From: an uncultured Bdellovibrionales bacterium
Lineage (GTDB): Bacteria; Patescibacteriota; Minisyncoccia; Moranbacterales; DUUL01
DNA length: 64,000 bases
NCBI GenBank assembly: GCA_964421125.1
Contig: CAYQVD010000005.1
Span: 867-64,866, forward strand
Direction of reading: 5' to 3'
Both the position numbers and the translations under genes were made by a program. Positions within the stretch are counted from its first letter, which is position 1; each line of letters opens with the position of its first letter. Positions 10,840-56,756 of this stretch are shown here, piece after piece. The notes below the pieces were generated by a model. The model worked only from the letters and a program-made list of their open reading frames with translations, was not told the origin of the DNA and did not search any database.

Positions 10840-12330
10840 ATGCTAAAAATTACAAAAGAAAATGAATACAAGCAAGTGGTTAATCCAACTGGAAAGCAAA
10901 AAGCCCCAGTAGTTTTTCATGTGTCAGATGAGCTAATGCCTAATGAATCCACTATTGAAAAACTTGTTAAAGTTGCATCAAATGAACATATCTTTCATCA
11001 TACTGCTGCCCTAGCTGATGTTCATCAAAAACCAGGAAGAAAGAATCCTTCTGGAACAGTAGTTGCCACAGAAAAATATTTTCTACCACAGCTCCTTGAT
11101 ACTGCTCCAAACTGCGGAATGAGATTAATTAAAACTCCTTTCAGTGAAGAAGATTTAAATAAAAAGCAAATCGATGAAATGTTCAAAAAATTTGTTGAAG
11201 TCGTGCCAACTAAAAAATATATTGGTAACTACATTCCATTAAAAACAGTTTTAGATATTTGCCAACGTGGGTCATCTGCAGTTCTTGAACATTTAGGCAA
11301 AGACGCTTCTGACGCAGAAAACATGCTAATGAATGGAAATATGTTTGAAGATGAGAAAATTAGTAAGAAAGATCTCTATACTGCCCTCCCACCAATGTTT
11401 TATCGCTTTGGGCAATTCCGACTTGGAATTCTTGGAGCTGCTGGAAATCACTTTCTAGATTTAATGAAAATTACTGACATTCTTGATGAATCAATGGCTA
11501 AAAAATTTGGAGTCAAAAAAGGTCAATATGTTTTTTTAGTTCATACTGGATCGGGACTAATTGGTCAATATGCAAGTTATTTTTATACTCCCAAAAGAAA
11601 AGAACATTTGAGTCAAAAAATAATTTCGGGACTTGGAAGAATATCATTTCTTGGAAACAAAAAAGATTGGCACAAAAAATTAAAAACGGACCTTCCCATC
11701 TACAAAGACAAAGATGAATTTTATGCCATTGATAGTCAATCAGAATTAGGAAAAAATTACTATACTGCCCACAGAGCTGCCGGAAATTTTGGCTTTGCCA
11801 ATCGAGACTTCATTCAACACAACATGGAAAAAGCGATTAAGAAGGTTATCGGAAAAGAAAACGTTCTCGAATTACTCTATGACATGTCTCATGTTTACGT
11901 AAATAAAGAGAACCACTATGGAAAGGATGTTTTAGTTCATCGTTCAAACACCACTCGAGCCTTTGGCCCTTCCAAAATGCAAGGGACAAAATTCGCCGAA
12001 ACTGGAGAGCCAATTTTCATGCCATCTTCAATGAGCACCTCTGCTTATTTTGGAGTAGCTACTGAAGAAAACGAGTCAACTTTCCGATCAGCTGCTCACG
12101 GAACCGGAAAAGCAAAAGAGAAAACTTCCAATGTTCCTCAAAATAAAGAAGAATTATTCAAGAAAATGGAAGAGCGCAATGTAAAACTTTATAATGCCGC
12201 ATCAAAAGAAGTAATCAATCAAGACGCCTCCAACTACAAAGATCCTGATAAGGCCCTTGCTGGTATGGAAGCCAATAAAATAATTAAAACAGTGGCAAAA
12301 ATGCAACCAGTAGCAGTTTTAATGTATTAA
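10840..12330 (+). CDS. rtcB: RtcB-family RNA 3'-phosphate ligase
   Basis: ALADVHQKPGRKNPSGTVVAT...TAPNCGMRL corresponds to the RtcB PDVHxGxG...GxDIGCGM metal site. HTGSGLIG and AAHGTGK motifs are also present. Confidence 0.7.
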   Translation: MLKITKENEYKQVVNPTGKQKAPVVFHVSDELMPNESTIEKLVKVASNEHIFHHTAALADVHQKPGRKNPSGTVVATEKYFLPQLLDTAPNCGMRLIKTPFSEEDLNKKQIDEMFKKFVEVVPTKKYIGNYIPLKTVLDICQRGSSAVLEHLGKDASDAENMLMNGNMFEDEKISKKDLYTALPPMFYRFGQFRLGILGAAGNHFLDLMKITDILDESMAKKFGVKKGQYVFLVHTGSGLIGQYASYFYTPKRKEHLSQKIISGLGRISFLGNKKDWHKKLKTDLPIYKDKDEFYAIDSQSELGKNYYTAHRAAGNFGFANRDFIQHNMEKAIKKVIGKENVLELLYDMSHVYVNKENHYGKDVLVHRSNTTRAFGPSKMQGTKFAETGEPIFMPSSMSTSAYFGVATEENESTFRSAAHGTGKAKEKTSNVPQNKEELFKKMEERNVKLYNAASKEVINQDASNYKDPDKALAGMEANKIIKTVAKMQPVAVLMY

Positions 12331-12366
12331 ATCCCCCCCCCACAGCCCTAATTAATACACACCTTT

Positions 12367-12448
12367 AAATTTGAAGTAATGTATTTTCAAGTGTCAGGCC
12401 ATTCCTATGGAATTTTGGGAGAAAATATGTTATTCCAAATTTAAAAAA
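12367..12448 (+). repeat. ~80-bp inverted-repeat (MITE-like) element, copy 1
   Basis: ~85% identical to 13099-13180. Terminal inverted repeats are AAATTTGAAGTAA ... TTATTCCAAATTT. It is intergenic between rtcB and the kinase gene. Confidence 0.7.
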
Positions 12449-12471
12449 GTTCAGTACAATAAAAAAATAAT

Positions 12472-13089
12472 ATGAAGATAATCACAATATCTGGATTAGA
12501 TGGATCTGGAAAATCGACTCAATTAAAAATACTTAAAGAAAATTTAACCCAAAAAGGTTATCAAGTTTTTGATTTTCACATGATTGACTTTTCAATTGCC
12601 AATAAACTTCTTGGCAAAAAGCAAGAAAAAGATGAGAATGAAATAAAAAAACCTAAAGCAAAAATTAAAACAGGCTTTTTTGGAATCGCCTTCAGAAAAA
12701 TTGCCTTACTAATTGATCTTAAAAGATTTAAAAAATTAATTCAAAAAATGAGCCAGGAAAACAAGATTGATTTCCTGATCACTGATAGATATTTCTACGA
12801 TCAAATCATTAATATTATATATCTAGAAAAGTCATTACCAGAAGGAAACAAATACTGGAAAAAATGGTCTGAAAAATTAATCACGAATCCAGATCACAAA
12901 ATATACCTAGAATTAGCTCCATCAATCATTATTGAAAGAAATAAAGATATTGAACAAGGTTTTGATTATTTTAATGATAAAAACAATCTCTATAAACAAC
13001 TGAGTAAAAAATGGGAATTAAATATTATCAATGCAGACGACACTATTGAAAATATTCAAGAAAAAATTAATGATTTAATTTCAAGCTAA
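12472..13089 (+). CDS. P-loop nucleoside/nucleotide kinase (thymidylate-kinase-like fold)
   Basis: The N-terminal motif ITISGLDGSGKSTQ resembles dTMP-kinase/deoxynucleoside-kinase P-loops. 205 aa. The gene is flanked on both sides by the 80-bp repeat. Confidence 0.5.
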   Translation: MKIITISGLDGSGKSTQLKILKENLTQKGYQVFDFHMIDFSIANKLLGKKQEKDENEIKKPKAKIKTGFFGIAFRKIALLIDLKRFKKLIQKMSQENKIDFLITDRYFYDQIINIIYLEKSLPEGNKYWKKWSEKLITNPDHKIYLELAPSIIIERNKDIEQGFDYFNDKNNLYKQLSKKWELNIINADDTIENIQEKINDLISS

Positions 13090-13098
13090 CTTTAATTT

Positions 13099-13180
13099 AA
13101 ATTTGGAATAATGTATTTTCGAGTGTCAGACCATTCCTATGGGATTTTGGGAAAAAATATGTCATTCCAAATTTAAAAAA
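13099..13180 (+). repeat. ~80-bp inverted-repeat (MITE-like) element, copy 2
   Basis: Direct repeat of 12367-12448, with terminal inverted repeats AAATTTGGAATAA ... TCATTCCAAATTT. Confidence 0.7.
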
Positions 13181-13218
13181 TCTCTCAAATATAATAATCC
13201 CAAATAAATTTACTGAAC

Positions 13219-14715
13219 ATGTCTAGTCTAATTAAAATCTCGCTTTGGCTTTCCCTTTCTGAATTAGCCTTCAATTTCTCAGGATACATAATCCATGCTC
13301 TTCTTGGGCGAACCTTGGGACCAGCTGACTATGGACGCTTCAGTCTTGTTATTGTATTTGCTACCATGATTGTTATTCTTATTGGAAGAGGAGTTCCCAT
13401 CGCAATGAATAAATATCTTAGTGAAATCAAAATTGATCAAAAAAACCCAGAAAGCAAAACGAGATTTTTTGAAATAAAACAAGCCTCAATGATCCTGCAA
13501 CTTGTTATTATTGCGACTTTTACTTCAGTTTACTTTTTTGCCTCTCCATATATTGCCATCTTATTAAAAGATGAAAGCTTAACTCCCCTTTTCCAGCTTT
13601 CATCCTTGATTATCCCAGCCTTTGGCCTAGCAAGTTTTTACGTTTATTATTACACTGGGATTCAACACTTCAATAAACAAGCTTTTCTGAAATTCTTTAG
13701 AGCCTCAGCAAAAATCTTACTAATTGTTGGACTTGCTTGCTTATTCAACGTCAAAGGAGCAATTATTGGACAAGCAACTGCTCCATTTCTAGTTTTCTTA
13801 ATTGCGATTTTCATGGATCCATTTAAAATGTTTAAAGAAAAACAAATTAAAGTTTCATCCAATAAAAAAACTTACAAAAAACTATTTGATTTTGCTTGGG
13901 TTATCATCTTCTTCCTGATTTTTTATGAATTGATGATTTCAATCGACTTGTATTTAGTCAAAGCAATCCTCCAAGATGATGCCTTGACTGGAGTATATAA
14001 CGCTGCTTTAACTGTTGGAAGAATTCCTTATTACGCATTTTATTTCCTAACCATTATCCTATTACCAAAAACATCTCAGTTAATTACTGAGGGATCTAAA
14101 GATAAAATTCAAAAGCTTTTACAAAGCTCCTTTAAATTTCTCTTTATGTTCATTTTTCCCGTTGTAACAATAACAGCTCTTTTTGCCGACCCAGCTATCA
14201 GATTCTTCTATGGCAACCAATACCGACTTGGAGCTCCTTCTCTGGAAATTTTAATATTTGGATTTGGATTCCTAACCGTTTTCTATGTTCTTACTTTTGT
14301 TCTCAATGGTGCTGGCAAAAACAAAATTCCATTATTCATCTCAATTTTAGGAGCAACTCTAAATGCTATACTAAACTATATATTCATTCAAAAATATGGT
14401 CTGATTGGATCAGCTATTGCAACAACAATAACTTCATTTATTGTTATGATAATTGCACTTATCTATACCAACAAAACAATCACAAGATTCATTCAGCCAA
14501 TCTCTCTCTTGAAATATTTCGTTGCTAGTATTGCAATCTATCTCATTGGTCAATTAGATTTTTTTACTCAAGGAAAATATATATTTATTCTCTGGTCTTT
14601 TATTCTTCTTGTAATTTATCTTTTAATTCTATTCCTTCTCGGAGAAATCAAGAAGGATGATTTACAATTTATAATAAAAGCTTTCAGAAAAAATAAAATA
14701 ATAAATGAAAGCTAA
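13219..14715 (+). CDS. Polysaccharide-biosynthesis/MOP-superfamily flippase (Wzx/MurJ-like)
   Basis: 498 aa with ~12-14 predicted hydrophobic helices. The N-terminus is typical of PF01943-like oligosaccharide flippases. Confidence 0.6.
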   Translation: MSSLIKISLWLSLSELAFNFSGYIIHALLGRTLGPADYGRFSLVIVFATMIVILIGRGVPIAMNKYLSEIKIDQKNPESKTRFFEIKQASMILQLVIIATFTSVYFFASPYIAILLKDESLTPLFQLSSLIIPAFGLASFYVYYYTGIQHFNKQAFLKFFRASAKILLIVGLACLFNVKGAIIGQATAPFLVFLIAIFMDPFKMFKEKQIKVSSNKKTYKKLFDFAWVIIFFLIFYELMISIDLYLVKAILQDDALTGVYNAALTVGRIPYYAFYFLTIILLPKTSQLITEGSKDKIQKLLQSSFKFLFMFIFPVVTITALFADPAIRFFYGNQYRLGAPSLEILIFGFGFLTVFYVLTFVLNGAGKNKIPLFISILGATLNAILNYIFIQKYGLIGSAIATTITSFIVMIIALIYTNKTITRFIQPISLLKYFVASIAIYLIGQLDFFTQGKYIFILWSFILLVIYLLILFLLGEIKKDDLQFIIKAFRKNKIINES

Positions 14716-15889: not shown

Positions 15890-16411
15890 TTAATTAAAAA
15901 GTTCTTCAATCACTCGGTCTTTACAATTTTCTCTTAAGCGACTGTCTAATATGCTATTGCATATTCCAGAATTTTTTTCACTTATTGCTTGATTCTTATA
16001 GCAGACGTCCTTTAAAAAATTATTAGTTAGGTTTTCACAATCTGATGACTGAGATTCTCCACCATTAAGACCACAAATTTCCAGACAATAATTATAATCA
16101 TCGGTGTTCTTTTTGTCTTCGCATTTATTATCACAATGATTCTGCAAAATATCTAGCAATTCTTGATTTCTTTCTCCTCCTGCAACGTCTTCAATGGTTT
16201 TATTGTCATCTTCATCTTCGCTTAACTGATCTCCATCAGTATCACCTCTCTCTATCAAATTACCACCATTCTCCTCTTGATTCTCACTATTATCATTGTA
16301 TATCTCATAAAGATCATCTCCCTGGAAAAAATAATCATGCCTATTTTGCCAAAGATAAAAACCCCCTCCAATCAAAATCAGTATTATAATTAAATAAATA
16401 AGCTTTTTCAT
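15890..16411 (-). CDS. Hypothetical secreted protein with an N-terminal anchor, an acidic linker and a Cys-rich C-terminal domain
   Basis: 173 aa. The N-terminus LIYLIIILILIGGGFYLW is hydrophobic. The C-terminal half contains 10 Cys. Confidence 0.45.
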   Translation of the reverse strand: MKKLIYLIIILILIGGGFYLWQNRHDYFFQGDDLYEIYNDNSENQEENGGNLIERGDTDGDQLSEDEDDNKTIEDVAGGERNQELLDILQNHCDNKCEDKKNTDDYNYCLEICGLNGGESQSSDCENLTNNFLKDVCYKNQAISEKNSGICNSILDSRLRENCKDRVIEELFN

Positions 16412-17099: not shown

Positions 17100-17621
17100 T
17101 TATCTCAAAGGAAAATCTGCCTTTTTTATTTTTTTCTCAAAAAAATCAAGGTGCCCACAACCAGTTAAAATCAAAACTACCCCATCAGGTATAATCTTTT
17201 TTTTGATATTATTCAACATTTCTTCTTCTCTTATAAAATTAGCCGCGGAATCAATGAATTTCTTCTCTGCTAAACTATTTATTTTATTAAAAATTTCTTT
17301 CTTATTAAAATCTTTCCAATTAAATTTATTTAAAACAGGCTTCTGCTGGTCGATAATTTTTTGATTTTTACTCGCAGAAAAGCCTCCTTTAAATATATCT
17401 ATTTCAGAATCAAATCCACTTAACTCAACTTTTTTACTTCTAGCCCAGTTTAAAGCAAAAATCATTTCTTGAGGATATTTCTCTAGATAGTTTTTATTTA
17501 TATCACCTTGATAAATTTCAACAAAAATTTGATTGGGGCTATAAAAATTTAGAATTTCCTCTAATTCTTTTTTCGGCGTATATTCTCCATGCAAAGTTCC
17601 AATAATTACAATTTTTTGCAT
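17100..17621 (-). CDS. Hypothetical protein
   Basis: 173 aa ORF with consistent codon usage. I recognise no family. Confidence 0.4.
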   Translation of the reverse strand: MQKIVIIGTLHGEYTPKKELEEILNFYSPNQIFVEIYQGDINKNYLEKYPQEMIFALNWARSKKVELSGFDSEIDIFKGGFSASKNQKIIDQQKPVLNKFNWKDFNKKEIFNKINSLAEKKFIDSAANFIREEEMLNNIKKKIIPDGVVLILTGCGHLDFFEKKIKKADFPLR

Positions 17622-17671: not shown

Positions 17672-18994
17672 CTATAAAATCCTCAAAATTTCCTCAATAA
17701 CTTTCTTATCATTCCATGGAATTTTTTTATCACCAACCATCATTGACTCTTCTGCTCCTTTCCCTGTCACTAAAACAATATCACCAAATTTTGCCATTTT
17801 CAAAGCTTTTTTAATTGCTTCTTTTCTGTCCATAATAATCCAAAAATTTTCATCTTTTATTCTATTCTCAATCCCCCTAGAAATTTCTTCAATAATTTGA
17901 TTCGGATCTTCATGATAAGGATCTTCGTTAGTTAAAATAATGAAGTCTGCATAATTAGAAGCAATCTTCCCCATAATTGGTCTTTTTCCTCGATCACGAT
18001 CTCCACAACTTCCAAAAACCCAAAAAACTTTAGACTCATTTTTATCTGCTAAATCTCTAACTATTTCTCCAACTTTTTCCATTGAGTCAGGTGTTAAAGC
18101 ATAATCAACAATCACTGAAATCCCAGCATCATTTTTCACATATTCCATTCTTCCAGGAATTTGTTTAATCTTAAATAATCCATTTTTAATTTTATCAAGT
18201 TCTATTCCCTGCGACAAACCAACACAAATTGCTGCTAAAGCATTTTCTATATTAAATTTACCAGCTAAATTTAAATCAATCTTATTTTTATTAACAATAA
18301 AACTAGTGCTTGATATTTTTTCTTCGATATCGCATGCAACTATATTAGTAGCACTCCCCACCTCTCCCTTAGGGATTTCCATCGAATAACTATATTTCAA
18401 ATCAACTTTGTGCCTTAAAAAATTTTCAAAAAATTCATTTTCCAAGTTAACCACTGAAACTTTAGGAATTTTCCTGCTAGACATTTTATTAAACCAAAAA
18501 CGTTTTTCATTAAGAATTGCAAATAATTTTTCTTTTGCCACGCTATAATTTTTCATATCTTTATGATAGTCAAGATGTTCTCGTGTCACATTCGTCAATA
18601 CTGCCACATCGAAATCAATTCCCCAAGTTCTATTTTGATCAAGAGCATGCGAAGAAGTTTCTAAAATAATATATTCACAACCAGCCCGAACCGCTTTATG
18701 TATAAATTTTTGTACTTGCCAAGAAGAAAGCGTGGTAAATTTTGTTTTATTTACTTGTTCCTTATCTCCGATACGAAAATTGATAGTAGAGCTAACTGCT
18801 ACTTTTGATCCATCTTCTTCTAAGACCTTTCCAATCATTTGAGTTGTAGTAGTTTTTCCATTTGTTCCCGTTACTCCAACTACAATTAAATTCCGAGAAG
18901 AAAAACCAAAGTAAAAATTAGCAACAACCGCTTTGCATAAATGAAATATATTTTTAAATCCCTGCGGAATCATTTTTTTAAATTTATGTAACAT
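17672..18994 (-). CDS. murE: Mur ligase family protein, MurE-like
   Basis: P-loop VGVTGTNGKTTTT, central VDYALTPDS (cf. the MurE DYAHTPDAL motif), and C-terminal DPNQ (cf. DNPR). The N-terminal domain is shorter than in canonical MurE. Confidence 0.6.
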   Translation of the reverse strand: MLHKFKKMIPQGFKNIFHLCKAVVANFYFGFSSRNLIVVGVTGTNGKTTTTQMIGKVLEEDGSKVAVSSTINFRIGDKEQVNKTKFTTLSSWQVQKFIHKAVRAGCEYIILETSSHALDQNRTWGIDFDVAVLTNVTREHLDYHKDMKNYSVAKEKLFAILNEKRFWFNKMSSRKIPKVSVVNLENEFFENFLRHKVDLKYSYSMEIPKGEVGSATNIVACDIEEKISSTSFIVNKNKIDLNLAGKFNIENALAAICVGLSQGIELDKIKNGLFKIKQIPGRMEYVKNDAGISVIVDYALTPDSMEKVGEIVRDLADKNESKVFWVFGSCGDRDRGKRPIMGKIASNYADFIILTNEDPYHEDPNQIIEEISRGIENRIKDENFWIIMDRKEAIKKALKMAKFGDIVLVTGKGAEESMMVGDKKIPWNDKKVIEEILRIL

Positions 18995-19002
18995 TTTTAA
19001 GA

Positions 19003-19992
19003 TTAATTAAATAAATCCTTCACTCCCTGTAAAATTCGATAAGTAAAATACCTTCTCTTATTAATTACAATATCCCAGCACCCTGGAAAGTCAACGATTT
19101 TTTCTTTTGGTGCAAAGCTGATTTTGAAACGAGTTATTCCTTTCCATAAATTCTTATCACTTTCATCAATTTTTAATCCACCAAAATCATATTTTTCACA
19201 CCCAAGCTTTTTAGCATATTTAATCGCCTCCCACTGGAGTACGTAGTTTGCCATAACATTTCGATGAATATTAGAAGATGCTCCATGTAAATAAGTCGCT
19301 ACTCCACCAAAAAAACTGACAACAATAGCTCCAATAACTTTCTCGTCATATTTTGCAAGATAGAGTTTTATTTTTTCATTATTAATTTCAGTTACCATTT
19401 TTTGATAATACTTAAACGGATGAATTGAAATCTTATCACGTTCTGCAGTTTTTTTTGAAATTTCATAAAAAATATTAATATCCTTTTCTGGATTTTCAGA
19501 TTCCTCAATTTGTACTCCCTTTTTTTCCGCTAAGCGAATATTATAACGAGTTTTTTGCTTCATTTCAGCTAAAAGTTTCTCTTCTGATTTTTCTAAATCA
19601 AGTATTAATGTTTGAGCTGGCTCATGGTTTTTCTTTGATTTTTTTATACAAAAATCTCCCCCTAAAACATTTTCAATTCCTTCTAAGTCACTTTGAGATT
19701 GTGGTTCAATTCGCAACCATCCCGCTTTCTTATTTTCACACTCTGAAATAACTTTTTTCATCACCTCGCCCAATTGCTCATCAGAAATATTTTTCAAAAA
19801 AATCGGCCCCCTTGGAACAAAAAAGTAATCCCCAACAACTGAAAGTGAATGCTTAAAGGCTCGCAAAGAAAAATTTTCCTGTTCAAAAACTAGTACTTTT
19901 TTTCCAGCACTTTCTTGAAATTTCCGCCAATGATCAGACTGTAAAAATCCACCATCGACACTATTTTCTTGATAAAATTTTTCTGAATTCAT
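19003..19992 (-). CDS. FemAB-family peptidyl/aminoacyl transferase (FemX-like lipid II branch transferase)
   Basis: The N-terminus MNSEKFYQENSVDGGFLQSDHWRKFQ matches the FemX FLQSxxW start. The track ORF begins at 20046, but those extra 18 codons run into a repeat element, so the start is placed at the ATG at 19992. Confidence 0.6.
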   Translation of the reverse strand: MNSEKFYQENSVDGGFLQSDHWRKFQESAGKKVLVFEQENFSLRAFKHSLSVVGDYFFVPRGPIFLKNISDEQLGEVMKKVISECENKKAGWLRIEPQSQSDLEGIENVLGGDFCIKKSKKNHEPAQTLILDLEKSEEKLLAEMKQKTRYNIRLAEKKGVQIEESENPEKDINIFYEISKKTAERDKISIHPFKYYQKMVTEINNEKIKLYLAKYDEKVIGAIVVSFFGGVATYLHGASSNIHRNVMANYVLQWEAIKYAKKLGCEKYDFGGLKIDESDKNLWKGITRFKISFAPKEKIVDFPGCWDIVINKRRYFTYRILQGVKDLFN

Positions 19993-20013: not shown

Positions 20014-20085
20014 TTTTGGATAACATATTTTCTCCCAAAATCCCATCGGAACGGCCTGACACTCGAAAATATATCATCCAAAAAG
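20014..20085 (-). repeat. Third, inverted and partly divergent copy of the 80-bp MITE-like element
   Basis: The reverse complement aligns with 12367-12448 (GGAAyGGyCTGACACTyGAAAATA core). Confidence 0.55.
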
Positions 20086-20139
20086 CTCCGTGAGTAAATA
20101 GTTAAAATATAAAAAATAATCGATTTAAAAATATTTTAT

Positions 20140-20280
20140 GGGAATAAAATTTTCTACAAAAATTTTGTCTGAAAGCCCAAATTTTATCTGGAAATCGTCT
20201 AAGGTAGTGTTGAATGTGGGTAAGATTTTCAGTAATAAAATTTAGGGCTTGAGTTTATTTTTGTAGAAAATTTTATTCCC
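20140..20280 (+). repeat. 141-bp palindromic TIR element (MITE-like or structured RNA), copy 1, downstream of ruvA
   Basis: 24-bp perfect terminal inverted repeats GGGAATAAAATTTTCTACAAAAAT / ATTTTTGTAGAAAATTTTATTCCC, with nested inner inverted repeats (AAGCCCAAATTTTA / TAAAATTTAGGGCTT). ~90% identical to 20968-21106. Confidence 0.75.
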
Positions 20281-20341: not shown

Positions 20342-20914
20342 CTACTTTTTCATTGCCCTTAAAGCGATGGTAATTCTTTCTGATAAATCGTCAGATTCTT
20401 TTGCTGAAATTTTAGCTGCTTCTCGTGCCTCCGAAACTGAATATCCCATACTCACCAGCGCTTCAATGACTTCCTGGTCAGTCTGAGCATTTTCTTGATC
20501 ACTTTCCGATGGAAGCATGTCGACCTTGTTCTGAAGCTCTAAAATCACTCTCTCTGCGATCTTTTTCCCTACTCCTGACACTTTGGTTAGAATAGATGAG
20601 TCCTCATTAACAATGGCAGTTTTAATTGTTTTTGGAGGAGCAATGGTCAGAAGCCCAAGTCCTGCCTTCGGTCCAATACCAGAAACTCCAATCAACAATT
20701 CAAACATCTCAAGCTCTTCCTGACTAATAAAACCATAAAGAGCCAAAATATCCTCTCGAACGTGAGTGTGGATAAAAACTTCTGCCTCTTCCATAGAAAC
20801 AATTTTCCCTAAAGTCACTTCGGTCATGTGAACTTGATAGCCAACTCCACTGACATTTATAATAGCAGTATTCCCACGAACTTGATCAACTTTTCCAATC
20901 AACTTCCCTATCAT
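20342..20914 (-). CDS. ruvA: Holliday junction branch-migration protein RuvA
   Basis: 190 aa. N-terminal OB domain IGKLIGKV...GVGYQVHMT, HhH motifs GVSGIGPKAG / VSGVGKKIAERV, and a C-terminal domain III. Confidence 0.85.
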   Translation of the reverse strand: MIGKLIGKVDQVRGNTAIINVSGVGYQVHMTEVTLGKIVSMEEAEVFIHTHVREDILALYGFISQEELEMFELLIGVSGIGPKAGLGLLTIAPPKTIKTAIVNEDSSILTKVSGVGKKIAERVILELQNKVDMLPSESDQENAQTDQEVIEALVSMGYSVSEAREAAKISAKESDDLSERITIALRAMKK

Positions 20915-20967
20915 TTATTTTATACTTAATATTAAAACTTACACTGAAATATTCAAAGGTTTTTTCT

Positions 20968-21106
20968 GAGAATAAAATTTTCTACAAAAATTTTGCCTGA
21001 AAGTCCAAATTTTACCTGGAAATCGTCCAAGGTGGTGTTGAATGTGGGTAAGATTTTCAGTAGTAAAATTTAGGGCTTGAGTTCATTTTTTAGAAAATTT
21101 TATTCT
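20968..21106 (+). repeat. 139-bp palindromic TIR element, copy 2, upstream of ruvA
   Basis: Direct copy of 20140-20280, with TIRs GAGAATAAAATTTTCTACAAAAA / TTTTTTAGAAAATTTTATTCTC. Confidence 0.75.
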
Positions 21107-21574: not shown

Positions 21575-23496
21575 TTACTCTTCCATTGATCTCTTTATTT
21601 CTTTTATCAATTTCGCCAGAGAACAAGTAGCTACGCCTAAGACCTTATCTGCTGCTCCATAATAAACAAAAAGTGTTTTTCCTATTAAGACGTTCCCACA
21701 GGAAAAAACTACATTTGGAACATTGCCATTTTTCTCATAAGTAGTTATTGGTTCAAAAATCGGATTTTCAGTACGAGCAATTATCTTCTCTGGGGTTTTT
21801 AAATCAGTAAGCATTGCTCCAAGCCGATAAGCAGAATCTATTTCTGAAATACCATGATACAGAATCAACCAACTATCCTTTGTCTTTATCGGTGGTCCAT
21901 TTAATCCCACCTTCTCACTATCCCATTTTCCTTTACGAGGAATAATCCAATTGTTCTCACTGTTCATTTTTTCTTTCGAAAAATTTAGATCTTTTGAGTA
22001 CAACAGGTCCATACCATAATTATTGATTCTATGGATAGCTAAATATTTCCCTTTGATTTTTTCAGGAAAAATACAGGCATCTTTATTTGAAATAGGAGAA
22101 TCAGAAACCAAATAAGGCTTACTCCATTTCCATTTTTTCTGAATAAAATCTTTTTTTTCAATACTCGTAAGAGCCACGCGAGGTTCTTGCAATCCATTAA
22201 AAGCTGTATAAAACATATATATTTTTGATCCAATTTTAACTAGACGCGGATCCTCACAACCATAATATTGCCCTCGATCATTTTTTTCAAAATCATATTG
22301 AGGAACATACACTGGATGGTTCAATCTCTCATCGATATCAAAACCATTCTTAGATGAAGCATATCCTAAAGCAGAAATAAAATTGGGAGATTCAGCACGA
22401 TAAAGCAAATGAACCTTCCCATTTTCATATATAGCTCCCGCATTGATAGTTGATCTTGCTTCCCATTCATTTTCAGCTTTTGGCTCTAATATTGGATTTT
22501 TATTAAATCTCTTCAAAGAAAAAACGTTAGAATTTTTTTCCAAAATATTACTTATTACGTCTTTCAAATTATAAGTTGTAGCACAACAAACACTATCAGC
22601 TCCAACATAAAAAAGATGAAGTTTTTCTTTTTCAATAAAAGCACCTGAAGGGAAAACTATGTTAGGCATTTTCCCATAAAGTTCATATTCTTTTTCTGGC
22701 ACAAGCAGAGGGGTCTTGCTAACATCAATAATTTTAGATGGGTCATTTTTATCCAATAATGCAGCATGCACTTCAAATAAAGTCTCTTTTTCAGGATTGT
22801 AATAATTTCTGACGTAGGAATAAATAACCAACCTTCTTTAGTTTTGATTGGAGGAGCACCAACCTCAAAATGATCAAATTCATTCTTTGGCAACCGAAGA
22901 AGATTATTATCTGCAGATTGATACCAGTCATCCCAAAATTCTGGCGACCAAATATCTTTTTCTTTATCAAAAAAAGCTATACCAATTTTTGTAGCCGGTG
23001 GACGATCTGTGTCAATTGACAAAAGCGCCACATATTTTCCTTTAATTTTTTCAGGAAATAATATCATTGCCTTAGAATTGAAAGTGGTTACTGGATGTTT
23101 TTCAATTTTTTTAAAATCTTTCGTAATAGCTAATCCAGTCTTTATTCCATCAGGACCAAAAGGAAAACTTGAAAGTGCAGTATAAAAAATATAATACTTT
23201 TTTCCAATCTTTGTTATACGAGGATCCTCACAACCAAATTTTTTCCAATCATATTCAGGTCTAATAAAAAGTTCTCGGTTTTTAAAATTCTTCCCGTCTC
23301 GACTAGTAGCATGACCAATAGTAGAAATTTATAATTTAGCACCATCAACATCTTATGGAGCAGAAATTGCTCGATAAAAAAGATGTGTTATGCCCTTCTC
23401 TTTCAAAGGACAACCATTAAAAGTAGCCTCACTCTCCCAGCTATTTAATTCTGATGGAAGAAGAATCGGATTACATTTGTAACGCTTTGTAATCAT
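21575..23496 (-). pseudogene. Disrupted tandem GH130-like glycosidase/glycoside phosphorylase gene (two GH130 domains; two in-frame TAA stops and a frameshift)
   Basis: The C-terminal 418-aa ORF (21575-22831) contains GCEDPRL and LYRAESPNFISALGYASSKNG. The upstream frame continues through ...FPEKIKGKYVALLS...APPIKTKEGWL, then shifts frame at the GGTTGGTT repeat near 22836-22845. The N-terminal domain (from the ATG at 23496) has in-frame TAA codons near 23331 and 23355, inside the conserved YRA...IGHATSRDG block. Confidence 0.55.
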
Positions 23497-23528: not shown

Positions 23529-25349
23529 TTAGACTAAAACAACCTTTTTCATAGAAACCACTTTAGGCGATTTAATCATAGATGATAAAAATTCTTTTAT
23601 TGGAGCAACAGCCACACAAACTACTGTGTCTGCCCCACCATAATAAACAAAAAGTTTTTCATCTTTAATAACAGTCCCACAAACATAAACTACTCCAGCT
23701 TTAAATCCTTCATTTTCGTAATGAAGCAATGGTTCTAGTATAGGCTGACTAGCACGGTATAATATTTTTTCCGGATTCTCGTAATCCAAAATCATTGCTC
23801 CAACTTTATATTTATTGGGATCCCGTCTATCCATGGCATGATAAAGTACTAGCCATCCAGAATCAATCTTAATTGGAGGAGCAGCCACTCCTCTTAAAAT
23901 ATTATCCCATCTGCGATCATCTGATTGATTATTCCTATAACTATCAATAACAACATTAGGTTTTTCTATTAAATCAAAATAATCAATCATTATATTAGGA
24001 GCAATACTATGTAAAATCGCAAATTTTCCTTTAATCTTTTCTGGAAAAACCACCCAATTTTTTTGAATTTCTCCTGGGCGAGAAATAAGACTTGGAGTTT
24101 TCCAATTCCACTTTTTATTTAAAAAATCAGAAACTTTTATAGAAGTTATCGCTACTCCAGGAGGACAATTTCCATTAAAAGCTACATAAGTCATATAAAT
24201 TCTTTTTCCAACAACGGTCAAACGAGGATCTTCGCACCCTCCCCATCCCCCACCTGACATATAAGGAAAAGTAAATGTTTCTTTTTGATTATTTTTTCTA
24301 AATTCAAAATATTGCGATGGAACATAGACTGGTCCCGCTAGTCTTTCATCAATTTTAATTCCATCTTTACTCGAGGCATATCCAAGAACAGAAATTCCAT
24401 CTTTCCCAATTGCCCGATAAATTAAATGTACCCTTCCATCTAAAAAAATAGATGCGGGATTAAAAACAGCTTCTGATTCCCAATAGTTCTTGCTTACTGG
24501 TGAAAGAATGGGATTGTTTTCCGTTCTTTGAAGTTGCGGTTGCAAAATAAAATCTTGCTGTTTTTTGTTTAAGGTCTTGATTTTAGAAAAAATGACTGGC
24601 GGAAGATCTGTAGCATGAAAGTTTTCTTTTTCATCTTTTCCGAAAAAAGTATATTTTCCTCGAAATTTTGTAATACCGACAGGAATAAAAGTTTGATTAT
24701 CTGGCTCCCTCCAAAAAGGCAAAGCTGCTCTCCAAATAATTTTCTTTGGATTTTTTTTATCTAAAAGAACTGCTCCAATTGAAAGTTTTTTATTATTATC
24801 TTTCGCATAATAAAAAAGCAAAATTCCTTCTGAATGATAAAAAATACTTGCTGGCATAAGACTTTTTTCGTCAAAATATCCTTTGCGAGCAGATAAAATA
24901 ATTGAAGTTTCTTTCTTATTAAAAAATCCTAATTTAATTTTTTTATCTCCAAAAAGAAACTGTCTTGATTCTCCTTTTTTTCTACTAGAAATAAACAAGC
25001 ATCCTCCATTAATCTTTGGCATTGACTGATCTTTCTTCCAGTGAATTAAGTCTGAAGAAAAAAATAAATTGGTTTTATTTTTTTTCTTAAAAACCGTCTC
25101 ATAAGAAAAAAAGTATTGCTTTTTAGAAATTTTTGAAAAACGGATATTTTTCCAACGAGCAGAATAATTTAAAGGAGTTTTTCCTTTTCCTAAAAAAAGT
25201 TTTTTTACACTTCTTTTGTTGTCCCAGTTAACCAGTTCTATTTGATTAGACTTAACTGTAGTTCGAATAAAAAATCTTTTTTTATCTTCACTAAAAGCAT
25301 TCAAATAATTGAATTTTTTTATTTTATTTTGAAAATTTTTCATTTTCAA
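23529..25349 (-). CDS. GH130-like glycosidase/phosphorylase with an N-terminal accessory beta-rich domain
   Basis: 606 aa. The C-terminal domain carries VHLIYRAIGKDGISVLGYASSKDG and GGCEDPRLTVVG (the EDPR motif of PF04041/GH130). It is a paralog of the adjacent decayed gene. Confidence 0.6.
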   Translation of the reverse strand: MKMKNFQNKIKKFNYLNAFSEDKKRFFIRTTVKSNQIELVNWDNKRSVKKLFLGKGKTPLNYSARWKNIRFSKISKKQYFFSYETVFKKKNKTNLFFSSDLIHWKKDQSMPKINGGCLFISSRKKGESRQFLFGDKKIKLGFFNKKETSIILSARKGYFDEKSLMPASIFYHSEGILLFYYAKDNNKKLSIGAVLLDKKNPKKIIWRAALPFWREPDNQTFIPVGITKFRGKYTFFGKDEKENFHATDLPPVIFSKIKTLNKKQQDFILQPQLQRTENNPILSPVSKNYWESEAVFNPASIFLDGRVHLIYRAIGKDGISVLGYASSKDGIKIDERLAGPVYVPSQYFEFRKNNQKETFTFPYMSGGGWGGCEDPRLTVVGKRIYMTYVAFNGNCPPGVAITSIKVSDFLNKKWNWKTPSLISRPGEIQKNWVVFPEKIKGKFAILHSIAPNIMIDYFDLIEKPNVVIDSYRNNQSDDRRWDNILRGVAAPPIKIDSGWLVLYHAMDRRDPNKYKVGAMILDYENPEKILYRASQPILEPLLHYENEGFKAGVVYVCGTVIKDEKLFVYYGGADTVVCVAVAPIKEFLSSMIKSPKVVSMKKVVLV

Positions 25350-56224: not shown

Positions 56225-56246
56225 AATTGATTAAATAACAAATTTA

Positions 56247-56689
56247 AAATTACAAATTCCAAATAAATTACAATGACTAAAAATCAAAATTCAAAACAAT
56301 ATGATTTGGAAGATAGAACCTTGGAGTACGGAAAAAGGATAATTAGAATGTCGAAGGAATTACCTAAAAATACAGTAAATTTTAAATTAATTGATCAAGT
56401 CGTTCGTTCTGGCACCTCAATGGGAGCAAACTATAGAGAGGCTAATGAAACAGAAACGAAAAAAGATTTTCGTTATCGCATAAGAATTTGTAGAAAAGAA
56501 GGCAAGGAGACTATTTATTGGTTAAATTTAATAATAGAAGCTAATCCTGAATTTGAAGACAGAATTAAAAATTTATTGCAAGAAACTACAGAGTTAGTAA
56601 AAATATTTGCTACAATTCTAGTAAAGTGCAAGTAGGTGTTTTGAAAATTAGAATTTAATATTTTTAATTTATTTGGAATTTGTAATTTT
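56247..56689 (+). mobile_element. IVS-like cassette: a four-helix-bundle gene bounded by perfect 24-bp inverted repeats
   Basis: IR-L AAAATTACAAATTCCAAATAAATT (56247-56269) equals the reverse complement of IR-R AATTTATTTGGAATTTGTAATTTT (56666-56689). A 14-bp tandem duplication GAATTTGTAATTTT follows IR-R. This is the same architecture as 23S rRNA intervening sequences, but here it lies between protein-coding genes. Confidence 0.6.
56273..56635 (+). CDS. Four-helix-bundle protein (PF05635 / 23S rRNA intervening-sequence protein; DGR Avd family)
   Basis: 120 aa. LIDQVVRSGTSMGANYREANETETKKDFRYRIRICRKEGKETIYWLNLI matches the family core (LxDQLxRAxxSIxxNIAEG...DF...IAxxSxxEx). Confidence 0.75.
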   Translation: MTKNQNSKQYDLEDRTLEYGKRIIRMSKELPKNTVNFKLIDQVVRSGTSMGANYREANETETKKDFRYRIRICRKEGKETIYWLNLIIEANPEFEDRIKNLLQETTELVKIFATILVKCK

Positions 56690-56715
56690 GAATTTGTAAT
56701 TTTTTATTAAGTTAT

Positions 56716-56756
56716 ATAAAAAGTGTTACTTAACTTGTTAAGTAACACTTTTTTGT
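56716..56756. terminator. Bidirectional terminator: perfect 12-13 bp hairpin AGTGTTACTTAAC/GTTAAGTAACACT flanked by A- and T-runs
   Basis: AAAAAGTGTTACTTAACTTGTTAAGTAACACTTTTTTG lies between the convergent four-helix-bundle gene and the GT-C gene. Confidence 0.7.

Follow-up and report, generated by a model that had tools for sequence, protein, structure and literature searches.

Hairpin repeats in the window

The stretch of 64,000 nt that was analysed here (contig CAYQVD010000005.1, positions 867 to 64,866; hereafter 'the window') carries three copies, A to C, of an element of ~82 nt: two of them bracket a gene for a P-loop kinase, and the third lies between ruvA and femX. Each copy represents a single long hairpin, the halves of which pair over ~25 bp around an apical region of ~32 nt. 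When the copies on further contigs are included, the family numbers no fewer than 14 full copies plus a split one, spread over at least 15 intergenic gaps, in ~133 kb of the genome of one ultra-small bacterium (Candidatus Moranbacteria). We consider it probable that the hairpin is a lineage-specific, non-autonomous interspersed repeat of the same kind as REPINs, miniature inverted-repeat transposable elements (MITEs) and Correia elements, and that its spread depends on the folded form. The copies in the window, scored with a covariance model built from the copies (model R1), are the following.

12364-12445, plus strand: copy A, in the gap between the RtcB and kinase genes and sense to both; 5' stem 12364-12388, apical region 12389-12420, 3' stem 12421-12445; 91.9 bits
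13096-13177, plus strand: copy B, in the gap between the kinase gene and that of a MurJ/Wzx-type flippase and sense to both; 5' stem 13096-13120, apical region 13121-13152, 3' stem 13153-13177; 92.6 bits
20008-20089, minus strand: copy C, in the gap between ruvA and femX and sense to both; 97.4 bits

A repeat scan of the window relates A and B as a direct pair (12364-12492 / 13096-13224; 78% identity, ungapped, over 129 nt) and links C to both in inverted orientation (13102-13171 / 20014-20083 at 84%; 12379-12439 / 20014-20074 at 89%). With up to three mismatches allowed, a 31-nt core pattern matches only A, B and C in the window and nothing in 100 shuffles. Both results bear out what a preceding sequence-only reading had described, namely three copies, one of them inverted, placed relative to the kinase gene and femX as found here. 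Its estimate of ~85% identity between A and B was fair, the value being 91.8% across the 85-nt element proper. The 13-bp terminal inverted repeats (TIRs) which it assigned to the element do reflect inverted pairing, but understate it: the real pairing extends over ~25 bp and forms one long hairpin. The outer arms of copy C differ from those of A and B (GAGCTTTTTGGAT / ATCCAAAAAGCTC) and yet still pair. Minimum free energies of the sense strands are -23.4, -23.2 and -37.6 kcal/mol for A, B and C, respectively, with z-scores of -4.1, -3.2 and -7.2.

Copy A ends 27 nt ahead of the kinase ATG (12472), copy B leaves 7 nt to the kinase stop codon on one side and 42 nt to the flippase ATG (13219) on the other, and copy C ends 16 nt ahead of the real ATG of femX. 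A spurious ATG is located within copy C (20046), and femX orthologues align from the Met encoded at 19992, confirming the earlier suspicion that the open reading frame (ORF) of femX had been artificially extended into this copy. Likewise as noted before, copy C adjoins a second TIR element, which is mapped here as a hairpin of 151 nt (20123-20273). The ~82-nt element itself is non-coding and contains only a non-conserved ORF of 5-8 codons; a mini-ORF reading, based on the motif GGGAG-N5-ATG in 6 of the first 10 copies, was rejected as the ATG is not conserved.

Further copies in the same genome

In addition to the three copies in the window, the set comprises 11 full copies and one old, split copy on contigs of the metagenome sample Ga0307992. 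A scan of JGI metagenomes yielded seven true copies on five contigs of this sample, plus a duplicate contig from Ga0307990, and searches with the covariance model brought in copies L009c, L012b, L029d and L029e. The exact-pattern scan of 185,579 GTDB species-representative genomes gave three chance matches only, none of them with the stem, and the element was not found in collections of viral contigs, phages and plasmids.

The window and the Ga0307992 contigs have both hairpin families in common and no overlapping genes. Contig Ga0307992_1000060 encodes a tyrosine transposase associated with repetitive extragenic palindromes (REPs), a so-called RAYT, and this protein recurs, identical, in ENA ERZ27316679 and Logan SRR8862237, both of which also carry the kinase locus of the window. 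Tetranucleotide usage of the Ga0307992 contigs correlates with that of the window at r=0.97, compared with 0.956 for the two halves of the window and 0.55-0.83 for relatives. Because of this sample overlap and tetranucleotide usage, the contigs and the window almost certainly derive from the same organism, and the notion of a repeat family common to two organisms was withdrawn. The hairpin family is thus so far unknown outside one Candidatus Moranbacteria genome. The Logan contig of the window locus ends within copy C (L002 7774-7821), as would be expected if the repeat breaks short-read assemblies.

Insertion relative to orthologous loci

The genes which flank copies A to C are as follows.

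10840-12330, plus strand: RtcB RNA ligase gene, upstream of copy A
12472-13089, plus strand: dTMP-kinase-like P-loop gene, 205 aa (PF02223, under the NCBIfam equivalog cutoff), between copies A and B
13219-14715, plus strand: flippase of the MOP superfamily (MurJ/Wzx/SpoVB-like), downstream of copy B and followed by an AI-2E transporter gene
17672-18994: murE, after femX
19003-19992, minus strand: femX (FemAB family), true start 19992, downstream of copy C
20342-20914: ruvA, between two copies of the 151-nt hairpin

The closest homologue of the flippase, 59% identical, is from Candidatus Moranbacteria (Patescibacteria, also known as candidate phyla radiation, CPR). Three other Moranbacteria, all free of the repeat, keep the gene order glycosyltransferases-RtcB-kinase-flippase-AI-2E-DUF212...MurE-FemX-RuvA-S20-RpoC, with the following distances between genes.

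RtcB-kinase gap: 134, 25 and 69 nt in relatives, 141 nt in the window
Kinase-flippase gap: 13, 108 and 8 nt in relatives, 129 nt in the window
RuvA-FemX gap: 2 and 4 nt in relatives, 349 nt in the window

Model R1 found no match in 11 loci of relatives, and the element is absent from the orthologous gaps of L018, L019, L021 and L023-L027. The gaps of relatives that correspond to those around copies A to C measure 2-25 nt or are filled with unrelated sequence. Genes next to copies include tig/clpP, pth/lytR, ygjP/eno, pgi/rnj, the pyruvate:ferredoxin oxidoreductase gene/rmuC, nusA and S15/uvrD. The pgi-rnj gap is particularly instructive: in relatives with an RNase J that is 87-90% identical it spans 157-177 nt and holds no copy, while here it spans 484 nt and holds two copies and a remnant.

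Two cases of nesting were identified. First, copy L012a, together with a 15-nt spacer, sits inside an older, decayed copy that is split at GTGTC^AGGCC; when joined, the flanks around L012a align to the element consensus, and none of 2000 shuffles scores as high. Second, a GC-rich palindrome of ~53 nt interrupts the apex of L012b, 4 nt from the first split point, an interruption recognised by comparison with the intact relative L029e. This palindrome (L012 4801-4860) reads TCGCCTTGCCGTC...GACGGGTCGAGGCAGGC, and a related fragment is located beside the L008 copy (~388-401).

Relative to the genes, seven copies are sense and five antisense. GC skew on the strand of the element is positive for four copies and negative for eight, and both orientations occur within one skew domain; a replication-strand bias, as expected for single-strand transposition of the IS200-like type (IS, insertion sequence), is not supported by these counts.

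Conservation of pairing

The outer stem comprises 27 pairs, of which 17 are changed on both sides among 13 distinct copies. Paired cells amount to 91.7%, versus ~52% after sliding the partners by one column, and the observed values are reached in none of 500 shuffles. The inner stem (AATGTATTTTC / GAAAATATGTT) is nearly invariant in the 13 copies and is closed by CGAG...GAG, and the outer 12-15 nt of each arm constitute the least conserved columns. The apical region of ~30 nt differs by sub-family, with variant apices in L009c and in the L012b/L029e sub-family; for two apical helix models no pair was found to be changed on both sides, so that covariation is absent there. Once two inherited wobble positions are set aside, G.T and A.C cells are balanced (9 vs 8). 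This balance marks neither strand as a functional RNA, and strand-specific selection was rejected on this basis.

The copies L012a and L029d, 4.6 kb apart, have the whole hairpin in common, and differ within it by a compensated change from A-T to C-G and by an A-to-G exchange giving a G.T pair. Since their flanks are unrelated, the arms evidently travel with the unit. L008 and L009p are alike over ~155 nt, including some non-palindromic flank. The converse possibility that a core inserts into pre-existing host hairpins, and that the arms are thus derived from the target, was rejected: arm-like palindromes lacking the core were not found, and the arms of L012a and L029d travel.

A RAYT gene and its own REP

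The RAYT and the GC-rich REP at its flanks, which make up a REPtron of its own, were located as follows.

L012 1566-2075 (= L029 10001-10510): RAYT, 169 aa; NF047646 at 86 bits (cutoff 80), PF01797
L012 1391, 1416, 1441 and 2092, plus strand, and 1517, minus strand: REP GGCAGGAGCCACTGAACCCAC, four direct copies and one inverted

The protein exhibits the HUH motif NHIHLL and a Tyr region YIHENPV..WYWSS, and its best match in the PDB is TnpA-REP (4ER8). Among the ~90 ORFs Pfam-scanned from this genome, it is the only Y1 HUH protein found, and no DDE transposase, IS or recombinase was detected. Together with an ORF of 167 aa, the RAYT forms an insertion of ~1.5 kb between NUDIX and rnj, from which close relatives are free. 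Five hairpin copies lie 2.7-7.8 kb from the RAYT, and of five copies detected in addition to the index hits, four fall in the 20.5 kb around it (roughly p = 0.03, post hoc). RAYT homologues are widespread in Patescibacteria (102 matches); the literature searched contains no description of such hairpin elements, or of RAYTs, in Patescibacteria. A family of short, GC-rich perfect palindromes, ACGTAAGGACGTACGTCCTTACGT, occurs near the RAYT (L012 2676-2699 and 2788-2811) and by a hairpin copy in L008 (154-177).

A second hairpin family and palindromes of relatives

The second family is represented by three copies of the 151-nt hairpin.

20123-20273: copy 1, adjoining copy C
20951-21101: copy 2, on the other side of ruvA
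L017 3725-3925, minus strand: third copy, outside the window on a different contig of this genome

The apex GAAAATCGNCCAAGGTGGTGTTGAATGTGG is 90-92% conserved in the L017 copy, and the long arms differ yet pair. That the 82-nt and the 151-nt family are built alike suggests a class of elements rather than a single oddity.

In relatives, the longer orthologous gaps are filled by unrelated palindromes, which indicates that these gaps have been colonised repeatedly. Examples from other Moranbacteria are a AGGAATTACGCG... family in L019 (9893-10000 and 16175-16469) and a GC-rich palindrome family, GTCATC...GGATGAC, in L018 (9236-9369) and L033 (2906-3291).

Interpretation

Multiplicity, insertion relative to relatives, maintenance of pairing through compensatory changes, nesting, lack of coding capacity and the presence of a RAYT in the genome were all observed directly, and make it probable, as stated at the outset, that the hairpin is a non-autonomous repeat which spreads in a structure-dependent manner. 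The unit that is copied would then be the whole ~82-nt hairpin, with an outer stem that is variable but paired and the inner stem AATGTATTTTC...GAAAATATGTT. Its targets would be permissive gaps, for the most part those separating co-directional housekeeping genes and frequently within operons that are tight in relatives; it would insert in both orientations, and the apex of a copy already present would be a target as well. Propagation would require the folded hairpin, probably as single-stranded DNA, and a trans-acting enzyme might recognise the inner stem or the apex; recognition of this type would maintain both pairing and inner stem while the outer sequence drifts. The only candidate enzyme seen is the Y1 HUH transposase, i.e., the RAYT, and its link to the hairpin is circumstantial. 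Effects on neighbouring genes, for example, RNase III cutting the stem in read-through transcripts, would represent a by-product.

Several observations weigh against this interpretation. Regarding mobility, (i) consistent flanking direct repeats indicative of target-site duplication were not found in 13 copies inspected, (ii) the termini are the least conserved part, so that the definition of a classical MITE does not apply, (iii) neither a transposition intermediate, nor an excision footprint, nor an insertion polymorphism in the population was observed, the copies being identical across independent assemblies, and (iv) templated correction from arm to arm, as may occur in palindromes, could keep the pairing in the absence of selection. 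That the apical core first looked nearly invariant was, moreover, partly an artefact of searching with the core pattern, and the claim of an invariant apical core was withdrawn when the covariance model found copies with variant apices. Regarding the enzyme, the immediate flanks of the RAYT bear the different, GC-rich REP GGCAGGAGCCACTGAACCCAC; a 72%-identical RAYT at another locus of another Moranbacterium (L033) is flanked by the same REP type, and that Moranbacterium shows no copies of the 78-nt hairpin. In addition, a conserved tetranucleotide such as GTAG was not found ahead of the inner stem, where TGAA, TGGA, ACAG, TTAG, GTAG and others occur. By these defining features, the hairpin is neither a classical MITE nor a member of the REPs or REPINs.

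Because REPs of one type flank both RAYTs, GGCAGGAGCCACTGAACCCAC, and not the hairpin, is the presumptive cognate substrate of the enzyme according to the criterion used for other RAYTs (PMC3116915, PMC8266576). That the RAYT nonetheless mobilises the hairpin may be regarded as a circumstantial lead, for which the sequence evidence leaves rather modest odds. It is likewise conceivable, albeit on balance doubtful, that the hairpins and the 151-nt family constitute a distinct, structure-dependent class of mobile DNA in CPR. Such a class would be characterized by recognition of the inner stem or apex, a drifting but paired outer stem and the single-stranded apex as a preferred landing site, and would owe its mobility to a RAYT whose activity extends past its own flanking REPs, or else to some hairpin-specific enzyme.

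Among the explanations that dispense with ongoing mobility, the one which survives best, while being unlikely, is that of an element retained by the host: the spread would be old, and the copies would now function as sites for nucleoid or topology proteins, or as RNase III or stability determinants. This would account for the pairing being kept in nearly every copy (91.7% of cells) and for the near-invariance of the inner stem in 13 copies. It would also accord with the small number of decayed copies, and terminator-free copies within operons of essential genes must at least be tolerated in transcripts. However, the conserved part is asymmetric and occurs in both orientations with respect to transcription as well as GC skew, so that no single strand-specific function fits; the element is missing from relatives with the same operons; and decayed and interrupted copies do exist.

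Less probable still, and largely refuted, is a cis-regulatory or structured RNA, either riboswitch-like in the 5'-untranslated region (5'-UTR) or a small RNA, that would serve the envelope genes femX-murE and the flippase gene. Within the window the idea is attractive: all three copies are sense and precede a start codon by 16-42 nt, folding is better for the sense than for the antisense strand, two G.U pairs are conserved, and the stem covaries strongly. Beyond the window, however, five of nine scorable copies are antisense and the neighbouring genes are functionally unrelated, and orthologous loci of other Moranbacteria do not conserve the element. The balance of G.T and A.C cells aside from the two inherited positions and the lack of covariation in the apical helix models also argue against an RNA, as do the copies interrupted by nested insertions. 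In Rfam, nothing was found at gathering thresholds, and at permissive thresholds only plant miRNA-precursor models, which match any long hairpin and thus represent generic noise. A riboswitch or 5'-UTR motif for envelope genes was therefore rejected on account of mixed orientation, unrelated neighbours and absence in relatives: fixed orientation, related downstream genes and conservation across species, all characteristic of riboswitches, are not exhibited by the hairpin.

A portable promoter or terminator module of several genes, which the sequence-only reading had proposed as an alternative, appears highly improbable. The copies in the window are near gene starts, and a new promoter could be useful where the insertion parts ruvA and femX, which are 2-4 nt apart in relatives. 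A consensus scan of copies A to C, however, revealed neither a sigma-70-like promoter nor an intrinsic terminator inside them, with totals not above those of shuffles; a U-tract after the stem was not seen on either strand; and orientation is mixed and the flanking genes are unrelated.

Finally, recombination sites of the attC or Xer/dif type that would turn the kinase into an exchangeable cassette can be dismissed: the gene does have a hairpin-forming site on either side, in direct orientation, but it resides in the same place in the three repeat-free relatives, neither an integrase nor a recombinase was found in the window, RYYYAAC/GTTRRRY core sites were not found at the ends of the element, and the arms are ~30 nt apart rather than 6-8 nt as in Xer sites. 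Judged by this synteny the kinase gene is an ordinary resident gene, which refutes the earlier suggestion that it could be mobile or form a cassette prone to recombination. A resemblance of the inner stem, ATAATGTAT / TATGTTA, to parts of E. coli dif was set aside, as the spacing of the arms is wrong.

Comparison with known repeat systems

REPs have been defined as palindromes of 20-50 nt which follow a conserved tetranucleotide, usually GTAG (PMC8266576), and REPINs exhibit compensatory changes in their hairpins and insert within or beside one another (PMC3116915). Like the REPINs and REP-containing BIMEs (bacterial interspersed mosaic elements) of P. fluorescens SBW25 and E. coli (PMC3116915, PMC8266576), the family described here consists of short, non-coding, intergenic inverted units that form a hairpin. 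The REPIN layout, in which conserved units in inverted arrangement enclose a more variable spacer, is found here in the inner stem and the apical spacer. The likeness extends to compensatory changes, random orientation, lack of target-site duplication, nesting, lineage specificity and a RAYT in the host genome; REPIN hosts encode a single one, and here a RAYT above the curated NCBI cutoff is present. The differences are that (i) the hairpin does not itself flank the RAYT, the REPs which do so being GC-rich and distinct, (ii) a conserved 5' tetranucleotide is lacking, (iii) pairing runs 12-15 bp past the conserved units into variable sequence, and (iv) the conserved units are not themselves stable palindromes.

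The Correia elements of Neisseria (CREE/NEMIS) and the ERIC/IRU elements of enterobacteria are imperfect palindromes of ~100-150 nt that are present, in both orientations, in transcribed gaps. They share transcripts with their neighbours and form long hairpins that can be substrates of RNase III; Correia elements, in addition, possess conserved 26-bp terminal inverted repeats and a TA duplication. Some copies of REP/BIME, ERIC and Correia elements have been proposed to be functional in the host. The present hairpin is likewise long, occurs in transcribed gaps in either orientation, and has a stem of ~25 bp that may in principle suffice for RNase III. It differs in its variable termini, the duplication that was not seen, the lack of sequence similarity and the phylum of the host. 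Both Correia and ERIC elements are named in the REPIN study (PMC3116915).

With IS-derived MITEs the hairpin shares that it is small, non-coding, multi-copy, made of an inverted repeat and variably present when compared with relatives, but it has neither conserved TIRs nor a target-site duplication, and a parent IS or DDE transposase was not found in 133 kb. Its previous designation as a second dispersed MITE-like family holds insofar as the element is small, non-coding, palindromic, multi-copy (at least 15) and inserted relative to relatives; it does not hold for the termini, which are the least conserved part, and a target-site duplication was not seen. Integron attC sites are similarly structure-conserved, sequence-variable hairpins between co-directional genes. 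R''/R' core sites and an integrase were, however, not found here, the bracketed gene is syntenic and the orientation is mixed; attC sites, like riboswitches, were rejected by their defining features.

Implications

Genomes of CPR/Patescibacteria are ~1 Mb in size and highly streamlined. Several families of probably selfish hairpins are unexpected in such a genome, the more so as some are wedged into formerly tight essential operons (ruvA-femX-murE, tig-clpP). If the RAYT were to mobilise the hairpins, the association of REPINs and RAYTs would reach a new phylum and a substrate of different layout. If the hairpins indeed formed a distinct class, Patescibacteria would gain their first described REPIN-like replicator system. 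On the practical side, the hairpins mislead gene callers, as is evident from the false extension of femX by 18 codons; they break short-read assemblies, and could serve as strain markers.

Other observations

Additional repeats are present in the window. Inverted repeats of 66 nt, 82% complementary (56233-56298 / 56637-56702), bracket a 120-aa gene (56273-56635) of the '23S rRNA intervening sequence protein' family, and a perfect hairpin of 17 bp is located at 56718-56753. A direct repeat of 59 nt, 78% identical (359-417 / 1519-1577), with the internal palindrome GTTAAATTGTGG...CCATTTAAC, lies just past the stop codons of two minus-strand genes and may represent a shared terminator or another small repeat.

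Two ORFs of 173 aa without a Pfam match flank the DUF212 gene (15890-16411 and 17100-17621, both on the minus strand); they are not paralogous, and are missing from this position in L019, where DUF212 leads directly to murE. On a contig of the same genome, L008 7539-9110 (plus strand) encodes an unusual fusion protein of 523 aa, in which a LexA DNA-binding domain is combined with a Peptidase_S24 domain and a complete C-5 cytosine DNA methylase domain; this gene adjoins a helix-turn-helix/Peptidase_M78 pair. Two neighbouring genes of the GH130 family (beta-mannoside phosphorylase-like; window 21575-22831 and 23529-25349) share 70-nt repeat blocks, and both constitute an insertion between S20 and rpoC relative to L019 and L021.

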